A DNA stretch of 64,000 nt from Bdellovibrionales bacterium (GCA_028819545.1 JAPPLG010000016.1:5160-69159), one strand, 5' to 3'; positions 1,950 to 22,470 are shown, numbered from the stretch's first letter. A program made the numbers and translations. Notes: a model not told the origin generated them from the letters alone.

Positions 1950-2627
1950 ATGTTTGTTTTTAATAGAAAGATTTACAAACCTCTTTTGGTTATTTTCGGA
2001 TTTGTTCTTTTTTCCATAGCCTCTTATGTTATTGGATACCAAGTGGGCTTTAAATCATGGGGCAAACAAATTTCAATCTCACTGGATCCTGCTCTTTCTG
2101 TCAGAGGACTGGCTTCCACTGAATCCGCCGCCCGAAGCATAGCCACTGTTTCCAATGAAGAATATACCAACCCCCAAAACTTATTTGATAAAGCTCAAAT
2201 TCTTGAAAACACCCAATCAGATAGTATTCTCTTTGTCATCGGAAACCTTCTCCATACAGATGAACAGGGTAATACATCTTTTGTGTGTAAAAATTTCTCT
2301 CAAGTACAGCTTTGGTTTGAAGCTTTAGGCTTGGCCATTAAAGGTGAAAAGGTAATTATGACAATCAATACAGATTGTACAGAAAATAAAGACCATCAAT
2401 ATATTGGTCCTTTCAGCATCCCCGCAAAAAAAATCTTAGAATCATCCATTGTTGAAAGCACATTTAGTGAGAATAATAGCGAAATTCAATTTGAGAATGT
2501 GTCTCTATCCTGGCCTAAATCGTGGGTGCTGATCAAAGCTGATTTCAAAAAAGCTGGAACATCTGACTTTTCTGTAGTTACTGAAACACCGGAAACTGAA
2601 GACGATATTTTTGTTATTGAACTTTAG
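1950..2627 (+). CDS. Hypothetical membrane-anchored protein
   Basis: 225 aa with an N-terminal TM/signal anchor (LLVIFGFVLFSIASYVIGY). Its last ~60 nt are the sequence repeated at 3894 and 4976. Confidence 0.6.
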   Translation: MFVFNRKIYKPLLVIFGFVLFSIASYVIGYQVGFKSWGKQISISLDPALSVRGLASTESAARSIATVSNEEYTNPQNLFDKAQILENTQSDSILFVIGNLLHTDEQGNTSFVCKNFSQVQLWFEALGLAIKGEKVIMTINTDCTENKDHQYIGPFSIPAKKILESSIVESTFSENNSEIQFENVSLSWPKSWVLIKADFKKAGTSDFSVVTETPETEDDIFVIEL

Positions 2628-2632
2628 TTGCT
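2568..2632 (+). repeat. Junction repeat copy 1 (native 3' end of the 1950-2627 gene)
   Basis: TTTTCTGTAGTTACTGAAACACCGGAAACTGAAGACGATATTTTTGTTATTGAACTTTA recurs at 3894-3958 and, as a shorter copy, at 4976-5015. Confidence 0.9.
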
Positions 2633-2875
2633 TTTGCTGTCTGAAGAATTTGTAAAATATACTTCAGCAATTACTTCTTTTCCAGTTTTGAGCTTTTCAT
2701 TCTTTGAAATAAACTTTCTGGGCACCACTATTTGTGATTTTGATTCTAATGACAACAAAGTGACGTTTTTACCGTCGTACTTCATCACAACGCCCTTGAT
2801 TTTAACCGGTTCTACTACAGCCGCCCAGCTGAATTGCAGTATCATACAGAACAAAACATAAATAAATATTTTCAT
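2624..2875 (-). CDS. Small secreted hypothetical protein
   Basis: 83 aa with signal peptide MKIFIYVLFCMILQFSWA. Sits immediately upstream-adjacent to the 294-aa gene on the same strand. Confidence 0.5.
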   Translation of the reverse strand: MKIFIYVLFCMILQFSWAAVVEPVKIKGVVMKYDGKNVTLLSLESKSQIVVPRKFISKNEKLKTGKEVIAEVYFTNSSDSKSN

Positions 2876-3893
2876 ATTACCTCACTCCTTTCGATGATTT
2901 GAATAATTGAATCTCAGAACGAGGAGTATCATCAGTCCATGGCAGTGTTTGAATAGGGGATTCTGACGAAGGCTTATGAATGTTTACAGATACTTGCTGA
3001 CTATTGATACAGTCATCCGCATTAGGACACCGATTGGAATCTACAGGATCGCAGTAAACTGGTATGGTTTGATTTGGAAAACTGCCTACACGACATTTTA
3101 CTTCACCTATGCAAACCGCTGGAAGCTGACACAAACCATTGCTCTGTGCAAATACAACAGGTGAAGGAGTAGAGCCAATGTATTCGCAATATGAAACACT
3201 AGGATTTGTTGCAGAAACAGTTTTCCTGCGGATAGAAGTTGAAAAATCTTCTTGTACTGCACCAGCAGGAATAGGCCACTCTAACTCCCTGAAACTACTA
3301 CGCTCTATCTCCGGTGAAACAGCATTATAAGTAAAAATCAACTCATCCAGAGACGGTTCTTCCTCTGGACTGTCAGACCAACTTTGAGCGAGTTTTTTTA
3401 ATCCCTCTGCCCCTTTTATTTGAGCAAGATGGTTTTTATAATCGTCATTATCAGGATATTTTTCAGCATTATCCATTATTGATGCTACTTCTATAATTAT
3501 CTGTTCACGTTTATAAGCTCCCTGTGAATAATCTGCTCGCGGCCTTTCCCATTTTAGGCTGGAAGGAGAAAAGCCTGAGCTTTCCACCTCATCATAAACT
3601 TCTCGCATTGTTTTGTCCGGCATATATTTTTGAGCAAATAAAAGAAATCCTCTATCACTTTTGTAAATCCCGTTCGTCAAGATCGCTTGAATTTCCTGTG
3701 GTATGAAAGCGTTTGCCGTAAACATCATGAAAGCAAGTAGAAATAAAAACAAAAAATTCATAGAAACTCCTTTTCAAATTATCAAAGAGAAAATCCCAAG
3801 ATTTTATGATAAAACGAAACACAATTTGTGTTTATAAGAATCTATAAAAACTGTACCAATGTACTGTGAAAGATCCATGATGGTCAAAACAGT
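2633..3893. mobile_element. Accessory cassette A-I (two secreted-protein genes) bounded by junction repeat copies 1 and 2
   Basis: Lies exactly between repeat copies 2568-2632 and 3894-3958. No recombinase gene inside. Confidence 0.55.
2877..3761 (-). CDS. Secreted hypothetical protein with a Cys-rich C-terminal half
   Basis: 294 aa with signal peptide MNFLFLFLLAFMMFTANA and multiple Cys in the last 100 aa. Confidence 0.6.
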   Translation of the reverse strand: MNFLFLFLLAFMMFTANAFIPQEIQAILTNGIYKSDRGFLLFAQKYMPDKTMREVYDEVESSGFSPSSLKWERPRADYSQGAYKREQIIIEVASIMDNAEKYPDNDDYKNHLAQIKGAEGLKKLAQSWSDSPEEEPSLDELIFTYNAVSPEIERSSFRELEWPIPAGAVQEDFSTSIRRKTVSATNPSVSYCEYIGSTPSPVVFAQSNGLCQLPAVCIGEVKCRVGSFPNQTIPVYCDPVDSNRCPNADDCINSQQVSVNIHKPSSESPIQTLPWTDDTPRSEIQLFKSSKGVR

Positions 3894-4068
3894 TTTTCTG
3901 TAGTCACTGAAACACCAGAAACTGAAGACGATATTTTTGTTATTGAACTTTAAGTAGTTGCTAACGAGGCTGTTTCAACATGAGTAAGAAATCCCATAGT
4001 GACTTTGCCATAGACACTGCAGATTTTTTAGCTCGTTCTTTTTCTTCAGAAGAAAATTTTTCTAAACA
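3894..4068. repeat. Junction repeat copy 2: decayed fragment of the 1950-2627 3' end fused to a decayed 3' fragment of the CADD-like gene
   Basis: 3894-3958 matches 2568-2632. 3952-4068 matches 5016-5135 with about 12 differences in ~160 nt by manual alignment, including a 1-nt deletion. It is non-coding remnant sequence. Confidence 0.85.
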
Positions 4069-4124
4069 CTAGAAAGTGTTTCTTCAACAATCTGTTTTAC
4101 ATAAGATAAAATTAGAAATTATTG

Positions 4125-4499
4125 CTATAATACTTTGGATTGAAAATTTCTCATCATACAAATTGAAGGATCGATAGAAAAACAGAAAACACTTTGTTTT
4201 TCATCTAAAAGATAATTGATTGAAAAAGAACCACTCCCAATAATATCCATTCCGATAATAGCCATATATTCTCCTGTATCAAAACAACCAACTTTGTATT
4301 TAAGCAGGGTGATGTCATTTGATAGTTTTATGTCGATATAGTGGATAGGGCATGCAACTTCACTTCCATTTGCCATTCTAACTGTCTTGGCACTATCAAC
4401 ATTTCTTAGTTCCAGATTGGCAATAGTTTTTTTATGTACAACAGTAAATGTGGCTCCAGTATCCCATAACACCTTACCTCTCTTTTTTTTTATTTTCAT
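4125..4499 (-). CDS. Retropepsin-like (clan AA) aspartic protease, possibly frameshifted at an A9 tract with an upstream ORF from 4581
   Basis: LWDTGATFTVV (catalytic DTGA) and IIGMDIIG motifs. A 35-codon ORF (4581-4474) overlaps its start and would fuse by a 1-nt shift in the A9 run at 4483-4491. Confidence 0.7.
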   Translation of the reverse strand: MKIKKKRGKVLWDTGATFTVVHKKTIANLELRNVDSAKTVRMANGSEVACPIHYIDIKLSNDITLLKYKVGCFDTGEYMAIIGMDIIGSGSFSINYLLDEKQSVFCFSIDPSICMMRNFQSKVL

Positions 4500-4607
4500 T
4501 TAGTGGATTTAACAGAGAAATTTCTGTTTCAATTTGAGTAAAAAAAGAATTTTGATGAATAGAAATAAGTTTATGTGCCATATATATTCACTTATTATTT
4601 TAATATT

Positions 4608-4856
4608 TTAAGAATTGACGTTGATTCTAGATATATATTCAATTTTATTAGTTATTTCTTGGACAAGAAAACTTCCTGGAATAAGATTATTGTCCCTTAT
4701 ATATTGTCTTGCTAGATCTTCTGTATCAAAAATATCAATAACCTTTTCATTTTGCACAACAGCAAATTTTCCTTCATTTTTTTGAATCAAAGAAGGTAGC
4801 TTAGTTTTAAAAAACTCATAATTCTTAAGCCAAGACTCTTTAGATGGACACATCAT
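4608..4856 (-). CDS. Small soluble hypothetical protein, partner of the retropepsin-like gene
   Basis: 82 aa, co-oriented and directly upstream of the protease ORF. The GKFAVVQNEKVI...SFLVQEI pattern is reminiscent of small partner proteins seen next to such proteases. That resemblance is from memory and unverified. Confidence 0.55.
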   Translation of the reverse strand: MMCPSKESWLKNYEFFKTKLPSLIQKNEGKFAVVQNEKVIDIFDTEDLARQYIRDNNLIPGSFLVQEITNKIEYISRINVNS

Positions 4857-4975
4857 AGATAAGCTTACATATAATTTTTCAACTTATCAACTGTCAAATG
4901 AATAACTCTTACAAGCCATTTCAATACTTACAGAAAGTCTAGAAAAAGATATATTTGTTTTGCTGTAATTTATAA

Positions 4976-5135
4976 AAACACCGGAAACTGAAGACGATAT
5001 TTTTGTTATTGAACTTTAAGCAGTTGCTAACGAGGCTGTTTCAACATGAGTAAGAAAATCCCATAGAGACTTTGCCATAGACACCGCAGACTTTTTAGCC
5101 CGCTCTTTTTCTTCAGAAGAAAACTTCTCCAACAA
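4976..5135. repeat. Junction repeat copy 3 (short 1950-2627 3' fragment followed by the intact 3' end of the CADD-like gene)
   Basis: AAACACCGGAAACTGAAGACGATATTTTTGTTATTGAACTTTAAGCAGTTGCTAACGAGG... The overlapping stops (CTTTAAG) reconstruct an uninterrupted convergent junction. Confidence 0.9.
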
Positions 5136-5681
5136 AACTTCTATAGCCTGACGATGATAAATATCTGCAGATTTATGCTCTTCAAAGAAAGACAAAGTCT
5201 TTTTATCTGTAATGTGATAATGACTTTTCAAACCTGTCATCTTTGTCTCAGCCACTTCAGGCACTTGGTATTCATAGCTGTAAAGTGCAGACAGCCCTTC
5301 AGGATAAGAAGAGCGGCAGTGAGAGAAAAAAGTATCAATCACTTTTTTTATATTGGGACAAAGAACAGCTTGTTGAACTTCTTCTTTTGTTAAACCCAAA
5401 CCCTCTGCAAAAGACATCCACAATTCCGGATGAGGAGTGCCTCTTTGCCCTTCTTCATCATTTAAATTTTCCAGTAAAATTTTTCTGTCCTGAGCATTTT
5501 CACAAAGAGAGTGCAAAGCACTGATATATCTCGGGAAAGCAGACACATGATGATAGTATTGACTGGCATAGTACTTCAATTGACCTTTGGAAACTTCCCC
5601 TTTTTCCCATTTTTGGTAAAAAGTATGTTTCAGTAGGTGATAAGGAGCTAATGCTGATTTTAACTCTTGAACAAAACTCAT
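5016..5681 (-). CDS. CADD/PqqC/TenA-type heme-oxygenase-like (iron-containing redox enzyme family) protein
   Basis: 221 aa. HLLKHTFYQKWEKGEVSKGQLKYYASQYYHHVSAFPRYISAL and LNDEEG...HPELWMSFAEGLG match my memory of the CADD-like family. Confidence 0.8.
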   Translation of the reverse strand: MSFVQELKSALAPYHLLKHTFYQKWEKGEVSKGQLKYYASQYYHHVSAFPRYISALHSLCENAQDRKILLENLNDEEGQRGTPHPELWMSFAEGLGLTKEEVQQAVLCPNIKKVIDTFFSHCRSSYPEGLSALYSYEYQVPEVAETKMTGLKSHYHITDKKTLSFFEEHKSADIYHRQAIEVLLEKFSSEEKERAKKSAVSMAKSLWDFLTHVETASLATA

Positions 5682-7259: not shown

Positions 7260-8441
7260 TTATTTGAGAATTCTGCGGTACTTTTCTATTGTTTTTACAT
7301 AAGGTTCAACCCAAACATGTTCTCCAATTTTTCTACTTCTTTTTTCATAGAGAGAACAGATAATCACCGGAGTTTTTGGAAATTCTCTTTGAAAAGCTTT
7401 AATAGAATGTTTGTTTTTTATTTGCTTTCCAGATTTACATTCAATAGCCATAATCGGCTTTTTTCCAGAATGAATAAGAAAATCTATTTCCCACTTGTCT
7501 TTACGCCAGCACGAAATTTGATGTGCATACTCCATATAATCACGAACTCTAATAAGCTCATTGGCGACCCATGTCTCAAATAAAAAACCCAATTCCTCTG
7601 TTGCAGGTTTATCCGTCAACCTATTCTGAAGCGCCCTTACAATACCACAGTCAAAAAAATAAAATTTAGGACGAGCTTTTTTTCTCTCACTTCGATCAAA
7701 CGGCCAAATAAAACGACCCATCAAAGTATCCTCCAGAATAGAATAGTGCTCCTTCACTGTATTCATATGAACAGAGCATTCTCTGGAAATATTAGAAAAC
7801 TCAATCATTTGTCCATTACACTGAGCCGCTACATCTAAAAAACGGTAGAATGAACTTAAATTTCTAACCAAAGATTCTGCTTTTATCTCTTCTTTAATAT
7901 AGGTAGTGACATAACTTTTTAACTGCCTCACAACACGTTTATTTTGTTTTTGAGCTACCAAAGAAGAAATCAAAGGCAAAGATCCAAAAAGAAGAACATT
8001 ATGAATATTAAAATCTTTTCCTAACTCTTTTATAGTCAATGGATGCAGTTTTAAATCTAAAGCTCTACCGCCAAGTAAGTTAGACTTTCCTCTTTTTAAT
8101 TTCCGAGCACTTGAACCAGAAAGAAAAAATTGAAGATTTTTTTGGTCTATTCCCATTTGAACATAATCCAAAATAGATGGTACTTTTTGAATTTCATCAA
8201 TAATCACTTGAGAACCTGTTTTTAAAGCAGATATTTCTTCCCAAAACATCTGAGGGTGAGTTATGAAATCCTTCTCTAATTGAGGATCTAATAAATCATA
8301 AAACACAGCGCTTTTGCATTGACTCAGAAGATGTGTTTTACCTGTCATGCGAGGACCAAAAAGAAAACAAGAAGATGAGTAATCCTTCATATTCAGCTCT
8401 CTTTTATATATTATATTGTTATTTACGCTCATAAATAACAA
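7260..8441 (-). CDS. COG1373-type AAA ATPase with a C-terminal PD-(D/E)xK-like (DUF4143-type) module; true start may be 8432 or 8390
   Basis: Walker A GPRMTGKTHLL, Walker B VIIDEIQK, LSGSSARKLKRGKSNLLGGRA, and C-terminal WEIDFLI...AIECKSGK (D...ExK). Paralogous to 22471-23610 and 42862-44013. Confidence 0.85.
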   Translation of the reverse strand: MLFMSVNNNIIYKRELNMKDYSSSCFLFGPRMTGKTHLLSQCKSAVFYDLLDPQLEKDFITHPQMFWEEISALKTGSQVIIDEIQKVPSILDYVQMGIDQKNLQFFLSGSSARKLKRGKSNLLGGRALDLKLHPLTIKELGKDFNIHNVLLFGSLPLISSLVAQKQNKRVVRQLKSYVTTYIKEEIKAESLVRNLSSFYRFLDVAAQCNGQMIEFSNISRECSVHMNTVKEHYSILEDTLMGRFIWPFDRSERKKARPKFYFFDCGIVRALQNRLTDKPATEELGFLFETWVANELIRVRDYMEYAHQISCWRKDKWEIDFLIHSGKKPIMAIECKSGKQIKNKHSIKAFQREFPKTPVIICSLYEKRSRKIGEHVWVEPYVKTIEKYRRILK

Positions 8442-8452
8442 TATAATATATA
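8405..8452. promoter_or_regulatory. Perfect 21-bp-arm palindrome (6-nt spacer) at the 5' end of ATPase gene B
   Basis: TATATATTATATTGTTATTTA-cgctca-TAAATAACAATATAATATATA. It lies upstream of the likely start at 8390. Confidence 0.6.
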
Positions 8453-8477
8453 AATACTAGAATTGTAAAGCTCTTTT

Positions 8478-10517: not shown

Positions 10518-12368
10518 ATGTCCTCTGATTCAAACACTAATAAAAAACATATTATTCTCATTGGCCCTCCAAATAGCGGAAAAACCACTTTATTTAACTG
10601 GCTGACAGGCTACAAAGCCCGTGTCGTCAATTACCCCGGGTCCACTGTAGATTACCTGACAGGCGATCCTTTAGATAAATACAATCTGCCTTATAAAATT
10701 ATAGATACTCCTGGAGTCTATAGCATCTTTCCAAAAAACCCCAGTGAACATATTACTCAAAAAATCCTAACAGAAACCCCTGTTCATACTGTACTTGTTT
10801 CTATTGATATTTCACGACTTCATAGACAACTGCCCTTGGTCTTTCAATTAAAAGCCATGGGTCTCCCTGTAGCTGTTGCACTCACGATGACCGACTTAGT
10901 GGATCAAAAATATGATATTTCAAAACTCTCAAAAACACTAGGAGGTATCCCTGTGTTTTCAGTCCAAGGCAAACTGGGCCAAGGTGTCACAGAGCTGGCT
11001 CAGGGAATTTCAAAGCTCTCTCACAAACCAGGCACACGCATGAGTGTGGAAGATATATCTAAATTACAGTCAAAGTTTTTTGAACAAACAGACGAAATTA
11101 TAGAAAAACTTCTGCCTAAAGAAATTAAAGGCATTGAATTTACAAAAAAAGCAGACCGTATTTTACTCCACCCTATCTTTGGGACTGTCAGTTTTATCTC
11201 TATTATGATGATTTTATTCTCATCTATATTTTGGCTTGCGGCACCCCTTATGGACTTAGTGGATATGGGGTTTTCTGTTATAGCTGAAAAAACATTACAA
11301 CTTGGCGACTCTCTTTTTATTGATTTTTTATCAAATGGAGTAATTACAAGTTTTGCCGCCGTCTCTGTTTTTATTCCACAAATTTTCATTCTTTTTGCCG
11401 GTATTAGTATCTTAGAAGACAGCGGATACCTGGCACGGGCTGTTTCTTTAATGGATACTTTCTTTTCTAAAATTGGCTTAAGCGGACGCTCCTTTATTCC
11501 ATTTTTATCAGGATATGCCTGTGCTATCCCTGCTTGTTTATCTGCCAGAAACCTCACATCCCGAACTGAAAGGTGGATTGTAATTGCAGTCATTCCACTA
11601 TTAACGTGCTCAGCCAGACTGCCTGTTTATTCCCTGTTGCTCAGTTTATTTTTCTATGACGACTCCCCTTGGAAAGCCGGGTTATGGATGACCATTATTT
11701 ATTGCGGCTCTATGGTGCTTGCCTCTATAGGAGCTTATATTTTAAGTCTTGTGATTCGATCCAACTCTTCTAATCCTTTTGTCATGGAACTTCCTATCTA
11801 CAGAAGACCCCTGCTGTTCGGAGTGGTTTTAGCCGCCTGGAGAAGAAGCTTTTCTTATATTAAAGGTGCAGGGCCTTTAATTTTTATTTTTGCTTTACTA
11901 ATGTGGGGTGCTTTGAATTTTCCCAGAAATGCAGACTGGAGTCCTTCCGAACAAATGGAAAATAGTTATGCCGGACAATTCGGAAAAGCTATTGAACCTG
12001 CCTTTGAACAAATGGGAACAGATTGGAGAGTAGGTATTGGTTTAATTTCCGCTTTTGTCGCTCGTGAAGTTTTTGTCTCCACTTTAGCAACTTTATTTCA
12101 AATTACAGGTGACGCAGAAGAATCAAGTCTCCAGCATTCCCTACTAAAGAAGATGCGCTTAGCCCAAAATAAAAGAGGCGATCCTGTTTTCACTCCCCTC
12201 AGCCTTGGAGTGCTTATTTTATTTTTTATGATTTCACTTCAATGCCTGTCCACTACAGCTGTCGTACAAAGAGAAACAAACTCAACACTGTTTGCAGTCA
12301 CTCAGCTGTTTCTTCTGAATTTTCTTGCTTATTTTATCAGTGTGGGCATCTATCAAATTTTATCTTGA
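10518..12368 (+). CDS. feoB: Ferrous iron transporter B
   Basis: 616 aa with an N-terminal G domain (GPPNSGKTTLFNWLTG, DTPG) followed by a polytopic membrane domain. Confidence 0.93.
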   Translation: MSSDSNTNKKHIILIGPPNSGKTTLFNWLTGYKARVVNYPGSTVDYLTGDPLDKYNLPYKIIDTPGVYSIFPKNPSEHITQKILTETPVHTVLVSIDISRLHRQLPLVFQLKAMGLPVAVALTMTDLVDQKYDISKLSKTLGGIPVFSVQGKLGQGVTELAQGISKLSHKPGTRMSVEDISKLQSKFFEQTDEIIEKLLPKEIKGIEFTKKADRILLHPIFGTVSFISIMMILFSSIFWLAAPLMDLVDMGFSVIAEKTLQLGDSLFIDFLSNGVITSFAAVSVFIPQIFILFAGISILEDSGYLARAVSLMDTFFSKIGLSGRSFIPFLSGYACAIPACLSARNLTSRTERWIVIAVIPLLTCSARLPVYSLLLSLFFYDDSPWKAGLWMTIIYCGSMVLASIGAYILSLVIRSNSSNPFVMELPIYRRPLLFGVVLAAWRRSFSYIKGAGPLIFIFALLMWGALNFPRNADWSPSEQMENSYAGQFGKAIEPAFEQMGTDWRVGIGLISAFVAREVFVSTLATLFQITGDAEESSLQHSLLKKMRLAQNKRGDPVFTPLSLGVLILFFMISLQCLSTTAVVQRETNSTLFAVTQLFLLNFLAYFISVGIYQILS

Positions 12369-12414: not shown

Positions 12415-13446
12415 TTGAAATACCAAGAAATTTTAAAAACAGCTAAAGACGAACTCTCCCAGGCCCCAGATACGAATGCTTTGTATCAAGTTCGGGTGCG
12501 CTATTTAGGAAAAAACGGGACAATCACTTCTTTGATGAAAGAACTTAAAAACCTCTCCCCTGAAAAGCGGCCGGCATTCGGCCAACAAATCAATGAATTA
12601 AAAAACGCTATTGAAGAACATTATCAAAACCGTAAAAAAACTTTAAAAAAGTCAGAAATATCCCATGAAGTTTCAAAAGATTTTTTAGATTTAAGTCTTC
12701 CAGGCCCCACACCTAAAGGAGGGGCTTTTCATCCTATTGAGCAAATTATTCAAAAGACATCCTCTATTTTTACTCATCTGGGTTATAAAAAAGTGTCCGG
12801 CCCTTTAATTGAAACAGATTGGTATAATTTTTCTGCTTTAAATATTCCTCCGGACCATCCCTCTCGAGACAACCAGGACACTTTTTATCTGGACTCTGAA
12901 CATTTGTTAAGAACTCACACCAGCCCTGTACAAATCCGAAGTTTGGAAAGACTCAAGCCCCCTTTGGCTATTATTGCTCCCGGCGCTGTTTTCAGAAGAG
13001 ATGAAATTGATTCTTCTCACTCCCCTCACTTTCATCAAATGGAAGGTTTGTTTATCGACCGAAAAGTTTCTATGAGCCACCTGAAAGGCACACTATCTTA
13101 TTTTTTAAAGGAACTTCAAGGCTCTTCTGCAAAGATTAGATTTCGCCCAAGCTTTTTCCCATTCACAGAGCCTTCCGCAGAATATGACAGCTCTTGTTTT
13201 ATTTGCAAAGGAAAAGGATGCTCTCTTTGTAAAGGCACAGGGTGGATTGAAATTGGAGGTTGTGGTTTGGTTCATCCCCAAGTTTTAAAAGCCAGTGAAG
13301 TTAATCCTGAAAAATGGCAGGGGTTTGCTTTTGGAATGGGCATGGACCGACTGGCCTTATTGGAATACGGCATTCCTGATATTCGCTTGTTTTATGAAAA
13401 TAGAATGAGCTTTCTGGAGCAATTTGAAAATGCTTTATTCTTTTAA
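12415..13446 (+). CDS. pheS: Phenylalanine-tRNA ligase alpha subunit
   Basis: 343 aa with class II motifs (DTFY, FRRDEIDSSHSPHFHQMEG, FRPSFFPFTEPSAE, GMGMDRLA). TTG start. Confidence 0.95.
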   Translation: MKYQEILKTAKDELSQAPDTNALYQVRVRYLGKNGTITSLMKELKNLSPEKRPAFGQQINELKNAIEEHYQNRKKTLKKSEISHEVSKDFLDLSLPGPTPKGGAFHPIEQIIQKTSSIFTHLGYKKVSGPLIETDWYNFSALNIPPDHPSRDNQDTFYLDSEHLLRTHTSPVQIRSLERLKPPLAIIAPGAVFRRDEIDSSHSPHFHQMEGLFIDRKVSMSHLKGTLSYFLKELQGSSAKIRFRPSFFPFTEPSAEYDSSCFICKGKGCSLCKGTGWIEIGGCGLVHPQVLKASEVNPEKWQGFAFGMGMDRLALLEYGIPDIRLFYENRMSFLEQFENALFF

Positions 13447-15895
13447 TTGGTTAAATGAATTTATTTCCCTTTCAGACCTTCAACCGCAGGACTTAGCTCA
13501 ACTGCTGAATGAAAGAGGCTTGGAAGTGGAAGCTTTATCCTCTGAGAAATTAGATCATGTGGTTATCGGTCAGATCACCAAAATTTACCCTCATCCTAAT
13601 GCTGATAAACTTCAAATATGCCATGTAAAAAAAGATAAAGACCAGGCTCCCCTATCTATAGTATGTGGAGCAAAAAATCCAAAAACTGGAGACAAAGTGG
13701 TTCTCTGTTTGGAAGGGGCGGTTCTTCCTGGAAATTTTAAAATTCAGGAAAGAAAAATTCGAGGAGAACTCAGTCAGGGAATACTTGCTTCCAAAAAAGA
13801 ACTTGGAATCTCTTCTGAAGACGACGGGGGTATTTTCATTTTACCCACATCTGCTCCCATTGGAAGCAGACTGGATGAATACTTAAAAACAAATGACACT
13901 ATTTTAGACGTATTTATTCCTCCCAACCGGGTGGATTTAATGAGCCACATTGGACTGGCACGGGAGCTTTCAAGCTTATTGGACAAACCTTTTCGCTTCC
14001 CTTTTGAACCTTATCATCATAAATCAAACACTTCCAACTTAGGAATTCCCAAAGGGCAAATGAAATATTCCAAAAGCCCTAAACTTCCTTTTGTTCCTTA
14101 CAAAAATTCTTTTAATGTCAAAGTATATGAAACTGATATTTGCCCCTATTACAGCGGACAAATGATGAAAGACGTACAAATCGGCCCCTCCCCCTACTGG
14201 CTTAAAAAAAGATTGGAATTGTTGGGTGTCAATTCTGTGAACAACATTGTTGATATCACCACCTGGATTTTACTGGAATGGGGCCAGCCTCTTCATGCCT
14301 TCGACTTGGACACTTTAGAAGGAGGCATCCACGTCAAAAAAGCAAAGTCCAAAGATCAAATGCTGGCTTTAAATGAAGATCAACTGACATTTCGAGGCGA
14401 TGAATTAGTCATTCGCGATGATAAAAAAAATCTGGCTTTAGCAGGTGTCATTGGCGGAAAAAGCAGTGCTATTTCTGATAAAACAAAAAATATTTTTATT
14501 GAATCCGCTGTATTTGCTCCTTATGACGTTCGACGTACTGCCAGGAGACTTGGCTTAAATACAGCATCCTCCTTTCAGTTTTCAAGAGGTGTCTTTCCCC
14601 ACACATCAATGCTGGCTCTACAAAGAGCCTGCTCACTGATCCAACAAGTTGCAGGAGGCTCTTTACAGGGAAGTCCTTACGAAGAAGGATCTTTTTCATT
14701 TGCACAAAAATCCATTACTATCAACCAAGAACAACTCAATGAACGTCTAGGGTATGAAGTTCCTCTGAATGAATTTACCGATTGGATGAAAAAAATGAAC
14801 TCCAAAGTGACAAAAAGATTTAGCAACATAAAAGTCACTCCTCCTTATTACAGAAAAGATGTAAATATTAAAGAAGATCTTATTGAAGAGTGGGCCAGGC
14901 TGAAGGGTTATGATTTTGTGCCGAAAGAGCTTCCGGTCTTTGCTCCTCAAAAATCTTTAAACAATAAGGAATTGAACTTTCTTGAGCGGATCAAACATAC
15001 TGTTAAAGAGCAAGGATATTATCAGGCTATTAATTATAGTTTTGTAGATCATACACTGCATAGTGAATTTTTAGGTGAAAAACCTGTTGCAGATATACCT
15101 CTTGGCCCTCCTATTTTTCTCACTAACCCCATCACTCAGGATTTGAACAGTCTTCGCCAGAGTTTGCTCCCCGGGCTTTTTCAAAATTTACTTTTTAATA
15201 TGCGGCATGGAGAAGATTTCGGACGGCTTTTCGAACAAGGGATCAGTTTTTTTAAAACAGGAAATAGGTTTGAAGAAAAACAGTATTTATCTTTTATGGT
15301 GTGGGGGCAAAAAAAAGACATATGGAATTCCAATCCACGTCCAACTCTTTTTGATTTGAAAAGCTCTATAGACAATTTATTAACATTGATTCAGGCTCCT
15401 GATTGGACTTGGACGGATTTTGAAGGTTCATTTCCATTTTTACATACAAAAAGACGCCTTTTACTAAAAATACAGGGGCAAACAGTGGGTTTTATTGGAG
15501 CTATCAACCCTATGTTGTCAGATCAAAATAAAATTCGAGGTGATATCTCGATGGGGGAGCTAAATCTATCTTTACTCTTGAATATTCCAAAAACAGAGTT
15601 CAAGTTCCAAAAACCTTCCCTCTTACCTTCTGTAAAAAGAGATATCTCCCTTCTCATCCCTAATGAGCAAAATGTAGAAGAAATTTTAAATTTTATGAAA
15701 AGTCATGCTCCTGCAGAATTCCGTCAAATCTCTCTTGTTGATTATTATGAAGGGGTTCAGAAGGGATTTCGATCTGTTTCTTTCCGTTTTATCATTCAAG
15801 GTTCTGATAAAACCCTCTCTGAAAAGCAAATCAGCTCCCTTCAACAGCCTATGGTAAAGGCTCTGTTAAAAAAATATCCTGTTCAGATTCGATAA
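13424..15895 (+). CDS. pheT: Phenylalanine-tRNA ligase beta subunit
   Basis: 823 aa with an N-terminal FNWLNEF and tRNA-binding domain (HPNADKL), plus B3/4, B5 and C-terminal FDX-ACB-like regions. Overlaps the pheS stop. Confidence 0.95.
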   Translation: MKMLYSFNWLNEFISLSDLQPQDLAQLLNERGLEVEALSSEKLDHVVIGQITKIYPHPNADKLQICHVKKDKDQAPLSIVCGAKNPKTGDKVVLCLEGAVLPGNFKIQERKIRGELSQGILASKKELGISSEDDGGIFILPTSAPIGSRLDEYLKTNDTILDVFIPPNRVDLMSHIGLARELSSLLDKPFRFPFEPYHHKSNTSNLGIPKGQMKYSKSPKLPFVPYKNSFNVKVYETDICPYYSGQMMKDVQIGPSPYWLKKRLELLGVNSVNNIVDITTWILLEWGQPLHAFDLDTLEGGIHVKKAKSKDQMLALNEDQLTFRGDELVIRDDKKNLALAGVIGGKSSAISDKTKNIFIESAVFAPYDVRRTARRLGLNTASSFQFSRGVFPHTSMLALQRACSLIQQVAGGSLQGSPYEEGSFSFAQKSITINQEQLNERLGYEVPLNEFTDWMKKMNSKVTKRFSNIKVTPPYYRKDVNIKEDLIEEWARLKGYDFVPKELPVFAPQKSLNNKELNFLERIKHTVKEQGYYQAINYSFVDHTLHSEFLGEKPVADIPLGPPIFLTNPITQDLNSLRQSLLPGLFQNLLFNMRHGEDFGRLFEQGISFFKTGNRFEEKQYLSFMVWGQKKDIWNSNPRPTLFDLKSSIDNLLTLIQAPDWTWTDFEGSFPFLHTKRRLLLKIQGQTVGFIGAINPMLSDQNKIRGDISMGELNLSLLLNIPKTEFKFQKPSLLPSVKRDISLLIPNEQNVEEILNFMKSHAPAEFRQISLVDYYEGVQKGFRSVSFRFIIQGSDKTLSEKQISSLQQPMVKALLKKYPVQIR

Positions 15896-15896
15896 A
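15833..15896 (+). repeat. Native pheT terminus: 64-bp sequence repeated perfectly at 23638-23701
   Basis: AGCTCCCTTCAACAGCCTATGGTAAAGGCTCTGTTAAAAAAATATCCTGTTCAGATTCGATAAA is identical at both positions. A diverged third copy lies at 22007-22053. Confidence 0.95.
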
Positions 15897-15960
15897 CCAC
15901 AAGCCATTCTTGTACGTAAAAGTTATTCTGAACTTGTTTCAGAATCCAGTGCATAGGAAA

Positions 15961-16065
15961 TACTTTGTATAAGCGGCTCAAAGCTCAAACATGCGTTTGC
16001 CACAGAACAACTTTCAGTCGTTCTGTGATCAAATCCGAACTCATTTGAGCCGCTTATACAAAGTA
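15961..16065. repeat. IR-flanked hairpin-core element, copy 1 (core in reverse orientation)
   Basis: 22-bp perfect IRs TACTTTGTATAAGCGGCTCAAA / TTTGAGCCGCTTATACAAAGTA flank a 61-nt core at 15983-16043. Confidence 0.9.
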
Positions 16066-16272
16066 TGTCCCTGCAAAGACAGGAGGCCAGCTTATATGCT
16101 ATGTAAAGGCTTGTTCTGTAAATTCCACCTAATATTACTCTATACATATAAAAGTTCTGTTAAAAACAAAGTAATTGAAAAATTTACACTTTTCTAAACA
16201 TCCTCTGTCAGTTTTATGAAGATTATGGTATAAAAACAAATCCATAACGTTGCTAAAGAGGATGTATTTTAC

Positions 16273-19200
16273 ATGAATACCCTGATTAAAAGTGTGTATT
16301 TAAAAAGCTGTACCCATTTTTTGTTTGTTTTCTTTTTTACACTTCCATCTCAATCTTTAGAGGAAACTTTCAATCTTTCACGCCCCTTCACAGTAACACA
16401 ATCTAGTTATCGACCAAATACTTTAGAAGAAAGCTTATATTACATGGAACTTTATGAGTTTCTTTCTAAAAATAAACATGCATTATCACTTTTAGAGTCT
16501 GCTCGAAAAGGCGGTGTACACTACAATTCTGCTCAATCAGAATTCAACAGATATTTATCAAACCCAGTATCTAATTTGAGAGAAGGTTTTGATTTGATAA
16601 ACAGAAATACTCATTTGAAGGCCAAAGCTCAGATAGGGGCTAAAATTTCAAATGCAGATATTGGATTATCCGCTGAAGTAGATTTAAAACGCCTTGGAAA
16701 TGACATATTAAATAGCTTGAGTAGTAAAGAATACAATCAAAAAGTTACAGACACTGCCCAGTTTTATACAAGAGAGATTTATGCGTGCTTAGAAAATAAT
16801 AATCAATGCTCTATAAATGCTCAAGTTCATCAAATACAAGCCTTGAAAGCCATACGATTCCATTTTCACGATTTTCCACAAGACAAAGATCAAGAAGGAA
16901 ATCGTTTAAACTTTGAAGAAAAATCCCAATATGCTTCTCCAGCACAAATAGAAATGGCAACTACTCTTTTTAATACTCATCAGCTACGAAGTATCTCAAC
17001 ACAAAATGAACAGAACACAGAAGAAATAATAAACGCCGTGAATACAAATACAGAGAGTGCTCAACAAATATCTCAGAAAGAAAAAGAGGAAATAATAACA
17101 GCAATAAATAAACATACAAAAAATATACAAGAGTCAGCTCTTATAGAAATGGAAAGGCTAGAACATCTAAGAAGAGAAAATATGAGACAAAACGATCCAG
17201 ATTATATGAATAGAGACCCAATTGTTCTGGCTACAAATAATAGTATTCAATCATGGGAAAAAGAAAAAGAACAAATCGCATCAGAGCTAGAGCAAGGCTC
17301 CATCACACAGGAAGAATACAGTAAAGAAATAGAAAACATTGATCGTACAATAAAAGAAAAACAGATAGATATTCAAGTTTATGAATTTAAAAAACACATA
17401 CAAAACGGAATAGCATGGGCGAATGCTGTAGAAGCAACTGGAAGAGTATTAGGAGCTCCAGAAGAGATCATCCAATTAAGCCGTGCAGGCTCAGCCAGCA
17501 TGCAAACAATCGGTGCTATAGGATCTATGTTTATAGCAGGATCCATAGACCCCACAGGGCTGACTTTAGCCCTTAATGGTGTTTCAATGCTTATCACAGC
17601 AATTTCAAATAATCCTAACTCAGAACAAATAATGATAGAACTGCTTGATGGCTTAAGAAAAAGACAAATACAAATTCTAAATAAACTTAATGAGATAGAC
17701 TTTAAAGTTGAAGAAATTCAACTCAAAGTGAATCATATTATTGAAATACTCCAAATGAATCATAATCAAATAACAGAAAAATTAGATCGAATTACAGATG
17801 ATCTGCAAAGAATTGAAAGTGAAATGATACTTGCAATAACAGAAGCAAAGTCCACTACAATGAAAGAGTCCCAAAAAAGAGGAGCTTTTTTTACTGATGA
17901 CGGCAGGGTGGTATTGGATGTATTAGAAAATTGGGAAAGACCTCATTTGAATGAAGTTATATCTCAATGTAAACACTATAAAGATCAATACGATAAAACT
18001 GGAAATATTAGATTTTACGACGACTATAATTGGTGTATTGATAAAGCTAGAAACCAACTCTTCATGATACAAGAAAGTTTGTCTGATATGTATCAAAAAT
18101 CCAGACACCGTTTTGGATCAGACACTTATATTGTGGAACAAAGTATTAATAAACTGAGCATTGAACAAGTTATTGATGAATGGAATAAATTAGTAGAAGA
18201 CCGAATTGGGATTTTCTCATCTATACACCCTTGGTTGAATCAACAATATTCAAAATATATGGCAAGCGACAGAAGATTCGGAGGCTTGTGGGCGGAAAGC
18301 CAGCCTCAGTGGGATGAATACAGACAGTTTTTAAACCGCATAAGAGAGGTGAATATTAAACATCCCTTATTTTATGATGAAGTTTTATCAGTATATGCAC
18401 CTTTAACAGAAAAACTTCCACTCCCCAAAAATCTCAGTTTTATCACAGAATCTAACATCACAGACTATAAAGATGCTCACCTGACTGAAATGTGCCAAAA
18501 TCTGAAACATATTGAAGATTTGTCTCAATACAATAGAGACCACCTCCAAAGAGCATGGCTGGTTTACCTTTATCTATCTGATCAATTGAAAAGGCAATTA
18601 AATAATCTAATGGAGAAACATATTGATCAATTAATAGAAAGACACGAAGAGCAAAGTAATAGCTTTGTTAACACTCCCGCCCTAAAAGAGCCAGACTGTA
18701 ACTGCAGTAGTAATTATGCACAAACAGAAGCAAAATTTTTCCAATATATATCCAGCCAAAAACAAACAGATATTTTTAGATACATTCAAAATCAAGGATA
18801 CAATATACATGATTTTATGAATATAAATCCTGAAGAAACTGCTCGAAAAGCCAGCAGGCGCCCTCATATAACCAACCCCTATCTTCTTCAAGAAGGATTT
18901 TTCAAAACTGTTCAAACTGGATGTGGAATGACAAGTAAAGGCCAGAGAAAAGACGTGGCCGATTTAAATCAACCCAAACAAGCAGAATTATTTGAAAAAA
19001 CACTGGAAGAAGTGCGAAGAGGATCACAAGGTGGCTGCTGGTTTATTGATCAATACGGTCTTTTTGGACAAACAGGCCAAAAAATACAATTAAGTCAACA
19101 GACAGGGCCTTATGAGTTTGAAGGTAGAGCTTTGGAAACAATGTGCCCCATTTTCGTTGTGAAGAAAACAGAAGGAACTATGAAAGATGAAGTGCAAAAG

Positions 19201-20349
19201 AGAGCTATCTGTTTAGAAACAAAAATACACAAGCTTGAAACCATATCAACACTGGATAATCTAGTTTTTGAAAATCTGTATGATTGGCCTGAAAGCCTCC
19301 CCATTGGAAAAGATTTAAAATTTATTGAAGAATCCCGTAATAAAATTTTTCATAATGAAAAACAAATTGATATTAATGAGCCTGCAATTTACGTATTCTT
19401 TAGGCAAAAAACTATGAAAGAAAACCCTGTTTATCATACAAAGCACAGCAGTTCTTTTATAAACTATAATTCAGCTAATAACACAACACCCAAAGAAGGA
19501 GGCCTTTTTACACTAAGTCATTATAAAATAGCTTATGGCTATTCCCGACAGCAAAGTGAAATAGTAGATTCTCCGCACTATAGAACTCCTGATTCTCCAG
19601 AGTACATTGGTAATATGACTTTGCAGAATCGAAATGGCAATACCATTTCATTTGGAAAATATAATGGTATTATTGAAGATAATACATATCAACAGGTGGA
19701 AACAGCTACTCAAAATAATTACCCAATCAGAATAGACACTCAATGGATTCGAGGAAATTTCGATAAACAAAATTATTGGACCATTAAAGATAATCTAGAT
19801 TATGAAAATACGGACAGCCATGGAATATGCCTTAAAAAAGCTTGTTTGGAGTATGAAGAAATAAAAGAGGCAGATAGAGAAGCCTGGATTCAAACAGCCG
19901 CTCAACACATAAGACAACTACAAGGTTTTTTAAACACTGATATTAAGAGATGGATCAACAAAGCCAATCTTGAAAATGATGACAATACTCCAAAACTGCA
20001 TATGTTGCTGCCAAAAAGTGCACTGGTTTTAGATACAATGGCTAGAGCTGGATACGGACAGTCTTTAGAAACACAGCCCGATTTATTAAATATAGTTGAA
20101 GAAATAAAATCATTAAAAGAAAAAATAAACACTCAAAATACAGAACAAATATTAAAAATTATTCAAAGTTTAAGAGATTTAAACGCTAATCAAGGTATTC
20201 CCTCTCTGCCTATTCAACCGATAGTACAAGAGGTGCCTGTCGGACTGGGAGACACCAAAAGCCGACATCAGGCCTTAAATATTATATTGAACAGAAATTA
20301 TCTCAGCCCAAGAGAATGTCGCTATTTAAAAAGAAGAGAACAACAATGA
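16273..20349 (+). CDS. Giant secreted coiled-coil protein of unknown function
   Basis: 1358 aa with an N-terminal signal-like segment and long charged heptad-like regions. A ~45-aa Gly/Ala-rich hydrophobic segment is encoded around 17479-17612. Confidence 0.75.
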   Translation: MNTLIKSVYLKSCTHFLFVFFFTLPSQSLEETFNLSRPFTVTQSSYRPNTLEESLYYMELYEFLSKNKHALSLLESARKGGVHYNSAQSEFNRYLSNPVSNLREGFDLINRNTHLKAKAQIGAKISNADIGLSAEVDLKRLGNDILNSLSSKEYNQKVTDTAQFYTREIYACLENNNQCSINAQVHQIQALKAIRFHFHDFPQDKDQEGNRLNFEEKSQYASPAQIEMATTLFNTHQLRSISTQNEQNTEEIINAVNTNTESAQQISQKEKEEIITAINKHTKNIQESALIEMERLEHLRRENMRQNDPDYMNRDPIVLATNNSIQSWEKEKEQIASELEQGSITQEEYSKEIENIDRTIKEKQIDIQVYEFKKHIQNGIAWANAVEATGRVLGAPEEIIQLSRAGSASMQTIGAIGSMFIAGSIDPTGLTLALNGVSMLITAISNNPNSEQIMIELLDGLRKRQIQILNKLNEIDFKVEEIQLKVNHIIEILQMNHNQITEKLDRITDDLQRIESEMILAITEAKSTTMKESQKRGAFFTDDGRVVLDVLENWERPHLNEVISQCKHYKDQYDKTGNIRFYDDYNWCIDKARNQLFMIQESLSDMYQKSRHRFGSDTYIVEQSINKLSIEQVIDEWNKLVEDRIGIFSSIHPWLNQQYSKYMASDRRFGGLWAESQPQWDEYRQFLNRIREVNIKHPLFYDEVLSVYAPLTEKLPLPKNLSFITESNITDYKDAHLTEMCQNLKHIEDLSQYNRDHLQRAWLVYLYLSDQLKRQLNNLMEKHIDQLIERHEEQSNSFVNTPALKEPDCNCSSNYAQTEAKFFQYISSQKQTDIFRYIQNQGYNIHDFMNINPEETARKASRRPHITNPYLLQEGFFKTVQTGCGMTSKGQRKDVADLNQPKQAELFEKTLEEVRRGSQGGCWFIDQYGLFGQTGQKIQLSQQTGPYEFEGRALETMCPIFVVKKTEGTMKDEVQKRAICLETKIHKLETISTLDNLVFENLYDWPESLPIGKDLKFIEESRNKIFHNEKQIDINEPAIYVFFRQKTMKENPVYHTKHSSSFINYNSANNTTPKEGGLFTLSHYKIAYGYSRQQSEIVDSPHYRTPDSPEYIGNMTLQNRNGNTISFGKYNGIIEDNTYQQVETATQNNYPIRIDTQWIRGNFDKQNYWTIKDNLDYENTDSHGICLKKACLEYEEIKEADREAWIQTAAQHIRQLQGFLNTDIKRWINKANLENDDNTPKLHMLLPKSALVLDTMARAGYGQSLETQPDLLNIVEEIKSLKEKINTQNTEQILKIIQSLRDLNANQGIPSLPIQPIVQEVPVGLGDTKSRHQALNIILNRNYLSPRECRYLKRREQQ

Positions 20350-21980: not shown

Positions 21981-22006
21981 AAATTTTAATTTACTTCATA
22001 ATTGAT

Positions 22007-22429: not shown

Positions 22430-22470
22430 CTATACTTGACATTACTCATATCTCATATTACTCTCTTTTC

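Follow-up and report, generated by a model that had tools for sequence, protein, structure and literature searches.

Two small gene cassettes between long target duplications at a convergent gene junction of a sponge-associated Bdellovibrionales bacterium

The site described here is a zero-spacer junction of two convergent core genes in a sponge-associated Bdellovibrionales bacterium, and it holds two small accessory-gene cassettes. Its structure is an insertion with long target duplication, which is a known class (PMC2853133) that an earlier note on this DNA did not name. We favour an account in which insertion with long target duplication was followed by stacking and loss of cassettes through recombination in a conserved core, and we give this account about an even chance of being right.

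The window, which is the whole 64,000-nt stretch of DNA that was analysed, contains the two core genes on either side of the cassettes. The left-hand gene, geneA (1950-2627, + strand), encodes a 225-aa membrane-anchored protein that matches no Pfam or NCBIfam family. Related Bdellovibrionales MAGs contain 10 homologs that are 60-85% identical to it, and among these the C-terminus, PETEDDIFVIEL, is nearly invariant. The right-hand gene (5016-5681, - strand) is an intact CADD-family gene of the TENA/THI-4/PqqC fold (TIGR04305, E=6e-80; PF03070). The last ~60 nt of geneA form a repeated segment, J, and the last ~120 nt of the CADD gene are the right-hand member of a 160-nt repeat.

J is present in three copies on the + strand. 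J1 (2568-2626) is the functional 3' end of geneA; its stop codon is TAG, with the G supplied by the cassette side, and is directly fused to the stop of an 83-aa cassette gene at the joint TTTA/GTTGC (the slash marks the boundary). J2 (3894-3952) and J3 (4976-5018) are orphan geneA 3' ends. J2 has the ancestral-type TAA that overlaps the CADD stop and runs into CADD' (3950-4068, - strand), a piece of a CADD-family gene that keeps its final ~39 codons and is cut off at 4066-4068. The overlapping stops, CTTTAAG, that the earlier note reported in copies 2 and 3 are indeed there, and the stops also overlap in an empty relative, L006. A 35-nt core, GAAACTGAAGACGATATTTTTGTTATTGAACTTTA, has exact matches at 2592-2626 (+ strand), 3918-3952 and 4984-5018 when the whole 64 kb is searched. 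There is no further site in the 64 kb with up to three mismatches, and the core is absent from 100 shuffles, so that three exact matches stand against 0 expected by chance and bear out the triplication claimed for this junction. The same 35 nt are identical in the relative L001. It is the one stretch that all alleles share unchanged, since it codes for the invariant C-terminus ETEDDIFVIEL.

Pairwise, 57 of 59 nt are identical between 2568-2626 and 3894-3952, and 43 of 43 between 2584-2626 and 4976-5018. Identity is 98% over 82 nt (3910-3991 against 4976-5057) and 90% between 3989-4065 and 5056-5132, where the offset is a 1-nt deletion. Copies 2 and 3 are set apart by 10 substitutions and a single 1-nt deletion in ~160 nt, close to the "about 12" differences first estimated. 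Formal alignment also confirms that the copies coincide with the cassette edges, the cassettes at 2627-3893 and 4069-4975 fitting exactly between them. The left arm of copy 3 may have a degenerate extension to ~4957 (10/11 match, register within 1 nt), which is marginal alone. J folds no better than shuffled sequences (z between -1.0 and +0.05).

Cassette 1 (2627-3893, - strand, 1.27 kb) consists of two ORFs and the 132 nt upstream of them, where a promoter-like site lies at 3887-3858. The products of 83 aa (2624-2875, - strand) and 294 aa (2877-3761, - strand) both have N-termini that resemble Sec signal peptides by eye, and no family was found for either in Pfam, NCBIfam, PADLOC and further family searches. 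They look like putatively secreted proteins carried as flexible or selfish cargo. Cassette 2 (4069-4975, - strand, 0.91 kb) has a G+C content of 28%, compared with 36% for the window. It encodes a retropepsin-like aspartic protease of 124 aa (4125-4499, - strand; PF13975, PF13650) and a small partner protein of 82 aa (4608-4856, - strand), with a TTGACA-containing region upstream that is conserved with L012. The pair gives a weak PADLOC match to PDC-M08B and is also found in L012 and L013, the L013 partner having a weak DUF5678 match. It looks like a defence-candidate or toxin-antitoxin-like pair, again flexible or selfish cargo. Neither cassette contains R-M genes (Pfam, NCBIfam), terminal inverted repeats or a transposase domain. 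The absence of integrase and transposase claimed by the earlier note is upheld: no integrase, transposase or reverse transcriptase was found in cassettes 1 and 2 (Pfam, NCBIfam and PADLOC scans), among window ORFs of at least 150 aa scanned against Pfam, or among the Pfam matches listed for 13 related loci (~170 kb), many genes of which have no match.

Relatives carry the same site in several states. Empty sites, proposed earlier as a thing to look for, were found in three related species: in L006, where the geneA homolog abuts the CADD gene with overlapping stops, and in L002 and L003, where spacers of 14-19 nt separate the two genes; alignment gives a single copy of the repeat target in each of the three. 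Alleles with alternative cargo exist as well. L001 carries its own geneA end twice (38/39 identical) with a 57-nt mini-insert in between, L004 has ~6 kb of cargo followed by a decayed orphan copy of ~63 nt, and L009 has homologs of both cassette 1 genes (72% and 52% identity) at the same place without repeats. There is no integrase among the Pfam matches of the ~6-kb L004 cargo.

The signature is not confined to this junction. In L012 the cassette 2 gene pair (57% identity) lies at a different, unrelated convergent junction, with one copy of a 57-nt stretch of that junction on either side, and no termini are conserved between cassette 2 and its L012 counterpart. Since the pair sits at a new junction with a local duplication, an origin step that duplicates the local target is needed. 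Within the window, duplications of gene 3' ends flank inserted genes in at least four more places: the pheT end in three copies (64 nt at 100%, 131 nt at 97%), the metallophosphoesterase end (60 nt), the ETF-QO end (23 nt), and a 27-nt exact repeat that encloses a 554-aa ORF. In related loci, the HIT end of L002 is present in three copies (76 nt), L004 has two duplications, one of 57 nt and another, of 32 nt, that encloses a BglII-like R-M pair, and L008 has one of 110 nt. Altogether the same signature is seen at at least nine other loci in the clade. When about 10 independent duplicated targets are compared, the one informative k-mer that recurs is the 7-mer CTGTAGT, found in three of them.

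The earlier note described 3952-4068 as a decayed fragment, a description that the substitutions contradict, and the middle copy as a different allele of the junction, which they support. In the geneA or CADD frame, 10 of the 11 substitutions in the middle copy are synonymous. Both differences between J1 and J2 are synonymous, and CADD' differs from 5016-5135 by eight synonymous third-position substitutions, by one substitution that is non-synonymous and by a 1-nt deletion. All 16 G's at codon positions 1-2 are unchanged. Where G>A would be synonymous, 7 of 10 G's are changed, compared with 0 of 18 where it would be non-synonymous (~1e-4, hypergeometric estimate). Comparison with outgroups places synonymous changes on both lineages. 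As the differences are almost all synonymous, the middle copy is the allele that an intact junction had in another lineage, and CADD' is a foreign or older allele rather than a decayed duplicate. Diagnostic sites flanking the 35-nt core switch allele between copies, which maps both exchanges inside the core. Judged by these markers, at least two lineages contributed to the stack, with exchange points within the 35 nt.

The convergent geneA-CADD junction, whose stops overlap when it is uninterrupted, would be a landing site for small self-contained cassettes. In a first step, inferred here, a promoter-bearing cassette would be captured at the junction in some lineage by a recombinase-independent illegitimate event; equivalently, a short tandem duplication of the target would arise with foreign DNA at the new joint, giving target-cassette-target. 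Because the duplicated target spans both stop codons, both core genes stay intact. In a second step, a cassette with a junction copy from another lineage would recombine with the resident junction inside the 35-nt core, and two such events would yield J1-cassette 1-J2/CADD'-cassette 2-J3-CADD. In each event an excised circle could have entered by a single crossover, two alleles could have crossed over unequally, or the unit could have been imported by double crossover. In a third, likewise inferred step, the direct repeats would permit precise loss and so regenerate empty sites. The process probably runs without an element-encoded integrase or transposase, the enzymes being host homologous-recombination and repair functions, whose substrate is possibly transforming DNA.

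The interpretation first proposed is supported in part. As to its entry by a single crossover, two successive events of this kind within the 35-nt core are compatible with the SNP pattern, but a double-crossover import or a later homologous replacement of the resident CADD gene fits the same allele pattern equally well, and therefore a circle and Campbell-type entry are not singled out. As a full account a single crossover fails, for it does not account for how a cassette first reaches a new site, as in L012 and at at least nine other loci.

A rival account is a target-site duplication made in situ, which we regard as unlikely. The two strands would be cut ~25-175 nt apart by the stop codon, the incoming DNA ligated and the overhangs filled, by a lineage-specific enzyme or break-repair route; the copy 2 allele would stem from a later homologous replacement of the resident CADD gene by that of another strain. 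Most duplications in the clade are 98-100% identical, as if made from one template (pheT 64/64, and 27/27, 32/32, 109/110 and 75/76), they affect many unrelated targets without a shared core, and their lengths cluster at 57-64 nt at four independent sites. Four independent duplications end at a boundary after TTTA on the sense strand of the duplicated gene, and in three of the four the intact gene has TAG where the orphan reads TAA. This boundary hints at a target preference beyond what purely generic repair predicts, and so counts against the account that we favour. Each of three unrelated DUF4143/AAA_14 genes (21-41% identity) forms an insert by itself, with a duplication at its flanks; DUF4143 is a PD-(D/E)XK domain (PMC3424549), and these nuclease-ATPase proteins could be the enzyme, in cis and in trans. 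However, in-situ duplication needs the extra allelic replacement, ending inside an 82-nt near-identical stretch, to explain 10 synonymous differences, and the lengths range from 23 to ~175 nt, hence follow no strict ruler. No nuclease is encoded in cassettes 1 and 2, there are no conserved termini for an enzyme to recognize, and DUF4143 is without a link to integration, PADLOC filing it as the defence candidate PDC-S01.

Integrases typically target conserved gene 3' ends, and J could be read as an att site served by a recombinase encoded elsewhere in the genome, with the cassettes as integrase-less satellites, CIME-like or cargo-only islets, in a tandem attL-attI-attR array. Besides the conserved gene end, the three direct repeats with their perfectly conserved 35-nt core agree with such a site, and copy 3 has a possibly degenerate left arm that looks like an imperfect attP arm. 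Reuse of the site extends across species that share 75-91% DNA identity: in four cases (twice in the window, L001 and L004) the orphan geneA copies have left edges within ~20 nt of each other. An att site would also predict these similar left edges, which to that extent count against a repair-based origin; for the favoured account we propose that they reflect stop-codon anchoring together with a typical duplication length of ~45-65 nt. Against site-specific integration, neither integrase, relaxase nor excisionase was found in the cassettes, the scanned window ORFs or the listed Pfam matches of ~170 kb of related loci, the ~6-kb L004 cargo included. At least nine other duplicated targets in the clade have no core motif in common with J, the cassette 2 family uses a different target in L012, and the right edge is not fixed, its range running from the stop codon to +117 nt. 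We consider this reading quite unlikely.

A further conjecture, improbable in our estimate, is that the clade possesses a dedicated insertion route, free of integrase and transposase, that homes to stop codons, leaves TTTA joints and copies a gene's last ~25-175 nt to either side of whatever DNA comes in, possibly catalysed in cis and in trans by DUF4143 proteins. If that were true, DUF4143 genes would be a new autonomous mobile element and cassettes 1 and 2 its non-autonomous passengers.

The window is 100% identical to the ENA scaffold ROBB21-1_SAMN13943215_METAG-scaffold_906, which comes from a short-read metagenome, and strain variants with different cargo at one junction could have been joined by the assembler via the shared repeat. 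The different alleles on the junction copies would fit such a chimera, as would the fact that L001, a related Logan contig, breaks off within the CADD 3' end. However, each joint has unique sequence on at least one side, and the diagnostic SNPs around the 35-nt core lie within ~50 nt, therefore spanned by single reads. An independent Logan contig, L011 (SRR10996925, 1,044 nt), is 100% identical to 3962-5005 and thereby confirms both cassette 2 joints, that with the truncated CADD fragment and that with copy 3; for the scaffold order across the repeats, this independent confirmation covers cassette 2. Other assemblies show the same architecture, in contigs (L004, L008 and L012) that are 0.02 to ~2 Mb long, and even in a chimera each cassette would still have junction copies at its flanks. 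A chimera is thus very improbable. A diversity-generating retroelement, with CADD' as template repeat and the CADD 3' end as variable repeat, has next to no chance of being right: all nine substitutions in the CADD part are A in the orphan and G or T in the gene (sense strand), but they fall at third codon positions only (8/9 synonymous) with many A's at positions 1-2 untouched, outgroups place changes on both lineages, and no reverse transcriptase or Avd was found in the cassettes or among the scanned window ORFs.

This one site offers a natural series of an empty junction, a 57-nt mini-insert, one repeat-less cassette, two stacked cassettes and a 6-kb cargo, and its allele markers place the exchange points within 35 nt. 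It extends long target duplication to non-nuclease cargo, namely defence-candidate or toxin-antitoxin-like pairs, putatively secreted proteins and DUF4143 ATPases, the last (AAA+/PD-(D/E)XK, PDC-S01) being the commonest single-gene cargo. The data suggest that this is a main way in which compact host-associated genomes accommodate flexible genes with the tightly packed core genes unbroken. If the preference for stop codons and TTTA and the ~60-nt length hold genome-wide, the mechanism becomes directly testable.

Among known systems, the stack resembles integron arrays and CALINs in its small one- or two-gene cassettes, stacked in one orientation, with toxin-antitoxin-like or defence-like cargo. 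Unlike integrons, it has no intI or attI and no attC-like palindrome at the cassette ends; the cassettes have their own promoters and the repeats are host gene ends. The stop of the cassette 1 gene abuts the boundary and thus leaves no room for attC, and with no intI among the scanned window ORFs and no significant fold of J an integron array was rejected. CIMEs adjoin ICESt1/ICESt3 at the fda 3' end in Streptococcus thermophilus, and cargo-only islets adjoin tycheposons; accretion in both depends on a known tyrosine integrase that a related element at the same site provides, and on one shared att core. The likeness lies in the tandem attL-attI-attR order, repeats of a conserved gene 3' end, recombinase-less modules and the coexistence of empty and occupied alleles. 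Here, in contrast, the targets are many and unrelated, and the searches turned up no integrase; with no cognate recombinase among the scanned window ORFs or the listed Pfam matches of 13 loci, and no shared att core, an integrase-mediated island or CIME was set aside. Insertion sequences of the IS1634/IS1630 type also make long, variable direct repeats (PMC2853133, PMC2266710), and the duplications here are likewise variable and far above 10 bp. Those elements have a DDE transposase and terminal inverted repeats, whereas the cassettes have neither, which rejects an IS1634-like transposon.

The published class with the same defining features is insertion with long target duplication (PMC2853133, PMC3457768), reported in 2000 (Gene 259:99) and by Furuta, Abe and Kobayashi in 2010 (NAR; PMC2853133), through which R-M genes enter genomes without a mobility gene by a mechanism never solved (PMC2853133). 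R and M genes in the insert were a search criterion of Furuta et al. (2010), not a mechanistic requirement (PMC2853133); they are lacking from cassettes 1 and 2 and present in the BglII-like R-M cassette of L004, whose 32-nt duplication is itself a point of likeness. As in that class (PMC2853133), the inserts are shorter than 20 kb (1.27 and 0.91 kb) and missing from empty-site relatives (L002, L003 and L006). The direct repeats, of variable length and often over a gene 3' end, exceed 30 bp and derive from a single-copy target (59, 43 and ~160 nt), and no mobility gene lies in or beside the inserts in Pfam, NCBIfam and PADLOC scans. Unlike the class as published (PMC2853133), the cargo here is non-R-M and without a nuclease, two cassettes are stacked among three target copies, the target consists of overlapping convergent stops, the middle copy is an allele of another lineage, and the signature is pervasive across a clade of sponge-associated bacteria.

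Downstream of pepA (421-1884) and geneA (1950-2627, plus strand; 225 aa, no known family) lie four small minus-strand genes, a convergent CADD-family gene (5016-5681, minus strand; TIGR04305, E=6e-80) and then rpmE2, encoding ribosomal protein L31. A 35-nt core from the 3' end of geneA, GAAACTGAAGACGATATTTTTGTTATTGAACTTTA, matches the window exactly three times, at 2592, 3918 and 4984 (copies J1, J2 and J3); no further match exists in the window with up to 3 mismatches, nor in 100 shuffles. Around the core, copies 1 and 2 (2568-2626 and 3894-3952) agree at 57/59 positions, copies 1 and 3 (2584-2626 and 4976-5018) at 43/43, and copies 2 and 3 (3910-4065 and 4976-5132) align over ~160 nt with one 1-nt deletion. 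In copies 2 and 3 the convergent stop codons overlap (CTTTAAG) and the repeat runs on into the last ~39 CADD codons; geneA ends in TAG in copy 1, where this stop is joined directly to that of an 83-aa cassette gene. Cassette 1 (2627-3893) lies exactly between copies 1 and 2, and cassette 2 (4069-4975) exactly between copies 2 and 3. The matches and this placement therefore confirm what an earlier note had read from the sequence alone, a triplicated junction whose copies coincide with the cassette edges; the repeat-framed cassette structure is real and well supported.

We found ten geneA homologs at 60-85% identity, among which P0002-P0009 were the source of the useful related loci; an exact-protein look-up of geneA gave no match. 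Scanning DNA for the core pattern returned nothing from viral or metagenome contigs, a protein-pattern scan of metagenome contigs had no match, and the scan of genome contigs returned only two loci. Empty sites, which the earlier note had suggested looking for, exist: in L006 the geneA homolog directly abuts CADD with overlapping stops, and in L002 and L003 the two genes are 14-19 nt apart. The closest relative, L001 (90.7% DNA identity over pepA and geneA), repeats its own geneA end (38/39 identical) 57 nt downstream, before CADD; this 57-nt insert is similar to no other fetched sequence, and an origin as a remnant was rejected. A distant relative, L004 (75% identity), has ~6 kb of other genes after geneA, and beyond this cargo a decayed ~63-nt orphan geneA end adjoins rpmE2. 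In L009 both cassette-1 genes have homologs between geneA and CADD, with identities of 72% and 52% versus 88-93% for the core genes CADD, L31, HIT and ETF-QO, and no repeat was found around them. Judged by this range of states, cargo has been gained and lost repeatedly at the geneA-CADD junction within the clade. In L005 (10586-10830) CADD is cut down to an N-terminal remnant between geneA and rpmE2, and is therefore dispensable in part of the clade. The Logan contig of L001 ends in ...TTCTTCAGAAGAA (10886-10898), a few nucleotides from the equivalent of the end of the truncated CADD fragment beside J2 (window 4066-4068), and that genome may hold a second, truncated CADD 3' end.

The same architecture is found elsewhere in the window. 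Three copies of the pheT 3' end occur (15833-15982, 21990-22139 and 23638-23701): 15833-15896 matches 23638-23701 at 64/64 positions, and 15852-15982 matches 22009-22139 over 131 nt at 97%, of which 86 nt are downstream sequence. A block of 1358-aa and 554-aa genes and a DUF4143 gene separate the copies, ahead of ihfA. Within this block a 27-nt exact direct repeat (20345-20371, 21976-22002), with its first copy starting at the 1358-aa ORF's stop codon and its second lying at that of the 554-aa ORF, frames the latter, an ALTTAQ-repeat protein. Another DUF4143 gene is enclosed by repeats of the final 60 nt of a metallophosphoesterase gene (42794 and 44105), and a third by repeats of the final 23 nt of ETF-QO (7226 and 8478). 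Each of the three AAA_14+DUF4143 genes (7260-8441, minus strand; 22423-23610, plus strand; 42862-44013, minus strand) is a single-gene insert, with 23, 64 and 60 nt of the neighbour's 3' end duplicated, respectively. Their proteins are only 21-41% identical to each other and are therefore separate acquisitions. They are listed in PADLOC as the defence candidate PDC-S01; on the mobility of DUF4143/COG1373 the literature yielded nothing relevant except the assignment of DUF4143 as a PD-(D/E)XK domain. Perfect palindromes precede two of the three genes (8403-8454; about 22406-22431). Next to the pheT repeats, a ~115-nt element occurs in both orientations with terminal inverted repeats of 20-27 nt (ACTTTGTATAAGCGGCTCAAA...TTTGAGCCGCTTATACAAAGT); together with a related element, which makes up three 184-nt units in tandem next to tRNA-Gln (47646-47717), it is located at 15955-16075, 22115-22235, 47125-47676 and 59452-59482. 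It looks MITE-like, REP-like or invertible and is without an Rfam match.

Related loci carry the signature as well. In L002 the 3' end of a HIT-family gene is present three times (12640-12678, 15954-16029 and 19190-19265), as a 76-nt pair (99%) and a partial copy that lacks 14 nt, and between the copies are a 1077-aa gene and a paralogous pair of 445-aa and 480-aa genes; the window's HIT junction (6786/6793), unlike that of L002, is unoccupied. L004 has a 57-nt repeat pair and, around a BglII-like restriction-modification pair, a 32-nt repeat at 100% (17230-17261 and 18826-18857); L008 has a 110-nt repeat at 99% (2432-2541 and 4451-4560) around a ~1.9-kb insert. Both the 32-nt and the 110-nt repeats are the 3' end of a small gene downstream of rpmE2, whose intact copy in L004 has a new C-terminus, KGF* instead of S*. 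In L013 (3500-8221) pilin-like (N_methyl) paralogs alternate with cassettes, namely two DUF4143 genes and the pair of small protein and protease; repeats of ~450 nt, 80-99% identical, cover the pilin 5' end and its upstream region, and a common terminator hairpin occurs three times.

The most informative case is the cassette-2 gene pair, a small protein and a retropepsin-like protease: at 57% identity it is also present in L012, where its surroundings differ and two copies of another convergent gene pair's junction (57 nt, 93% identical) enclose it. Outside a promoter-like TTGACA region, cassette 2 and this homolog have no termini in common. One cassette thus sits at unrelated targets, each time framed by local sequence, so it did not carry that sequence along and the duplication must be created on arrival. 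A plasmid or phage origin of cassette 2 was rejected, there being no plasmid match and only 29%-identity matches in three Leptospira phages.

The joints exhibit several regularities. In four independent duplications (window 2622-2630 and 42849-42857; L012 10494-10502; L004 18823-18830) the repeat, read along the duplicated gene's sense strand, ends in TTTA|, and at three of them the intact gene has TAG and the orphan TAA, which puts the joint inside the stop codon. Four independent sites have duplications of 57-64 nt, and in four cases the left edges of orphan geneA copies lie no more than ~20 nt apart. These features could stem from stop-codon anchoring with a preferred length, or from an enzyme with a target preference. 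The second reading bears on a true staggered-cut duplication by a lineage-specific enzyme, which we regard as unlikely; duplications of 23, 27, 32, 76, 110 and ~160 nt weaken the idea of a fixed ~60-nt ruler. The 7-mer CTGTAGT, rare in the 64-kb window (nine occurrences on both strands), is found close to the stop-distal edge in three independent duplicated segments (window 2572 and 3898 at the geneA end, 7236 and 8488 at the ETF-QO end; ~9603 and ~10542 at the L012 junction), but its orientation is inconsistent and the association may be chance.

A site-specific recombinase encoded elsewhere in the genome could act in trans on inserts that carry no mobility gene of their own. No integrase, transposase, relaxase or reverse transcriptase domain was detected in cassettes 1 and 2, among 30 Pfam-scanned ORFs of the 37 of at least 150 aa in window 9000-64000, or among the precomputed Pfam matches listed for ~170 kb of related loci, in agreement with the earlier note, which had seen no integrase or transposase. 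J folds no better than shuffles, without significant secondary structure on either strand, and has no Rfam match, tRNA-Gln being the only hit of that scan, so an RNA or structural explanation was rejected. There are no terminal inverted repeats, and cassette ends align locally no better than shuffles do, which likewise removes conserved termini. No informative motif is common to ~10 independent duplicated targets; the only candidates for a common att motif, AT-rich k-mers and CTGTAGT in three targets, are not convincing. Together these absences argue against an integron, an IS or a single att-specific recombinase, and we consider the trans-acting enzyme improbable.

That the array is an assembly chimera is very doubtful. 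The window is 100% identical to a 71-kb sponge-metagenome MAG scaffold (ROBB21-1_SAMN13943215_METAG-scaffold_906, labelled 'Bdellovibrionales bacterium'), and a 1,044-nt contig from an independent Logan assembly of run SRR10996925 is identical to window 3962-5005: it starts within the truncated CADD fragment, crosses cassette 2, reaches into copy 3 and stops where k-mers become common to the other copies. At each of the other joints one side is unique sequence, about 50 nt at most separates the allele-specific bases on either side of the 35-nt core, and contigs of 0.02 to ~2 Mb from other assemblies show the same architecture.

Read in the CADD frame, copies 2 and 3 have eight differences at third codon positions, all synonymous, plus one non-synonymous change (penultimate codon) and the 1-nt deletion; in the geneA frame, both differences between copies 1 and 2 are synonymous. 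Seven of the ten G's where G>A is synonymous have changed, versus 0/16 at codon positions 1-2 and 0/2 among non-synonymous third-position G's (~1e-4, our hypergeometric estimate), and outgroups place synonymous changes on both lineages. These same features dismiss a diversity-generating retroelement as the source of the A-versus-G pattern, a reading with next to no probability. A duplicate idle for that long would carry ~30 changes over all positions; copy 2 therefore comes from an intact, empty-type junction with both genes under selection, in a lineage about as distant as L001, and was orphaned only recently. The earlier note was partly right: it took the middle copy for a different junction allele, which holds, and its CADD fragment for decayed, which does not. 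Left of the core, J1 (2591) and J3 (4983) have G and J2 (3917) has A; diagnostic sites on both sides switch allele between copies, which places the exchanges that built the array, whatever their nature, inside the 35-38-nt core, also identical in L001. The single-crossover entry proposed in that note is compatible with this pattern, as two successive single crossovers, but unequal crossover of two occupied alleles, double-crossover import or later replacement of the resident CADD would fit equally well.

The alleles show that at least two lineages contributed to the array, with exchanges in the core. In the overall model, to which we give about even credence, a promoter-bearing cassette would enter the junction through an illegitimate capture, which amounts to a short tandem target duplication that holds foreign DNA at its joint; where a genome is compact, both genes stay intact only if the event duplicates the two gene ends. 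Units of cassette and junction copy would then spread and stack by recombining with resident junctions through the conserved 35-nt core, and recombination between direct repeats would restore empty sites.

The cassette array is a known but unsolved kind of event. It matches the features that define 'insertion with long target duplication', described by Kobayashi's group: short inserts without mobility genes, framed by direct repeats of >30 bp equal to one empty-site copy and often overlapping a gene's 3' end, found mostly in naturally competent species (PMC2853133). The idea has also been used for very short inserts between long duplicates (PMC3457768), which the 57-nt insert of L001 resembles. 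The geneA-CADD locus series could make the mechanism of such insertion testable. What is new compared with the Kobayashi class is that the geneA-CADD site has cargo other than restriction-modification genes, stacks its cassettes among three target copies, uses two overlapping convergent stops as target and offers allele markers, and that the signature is frequent across the whole clade.
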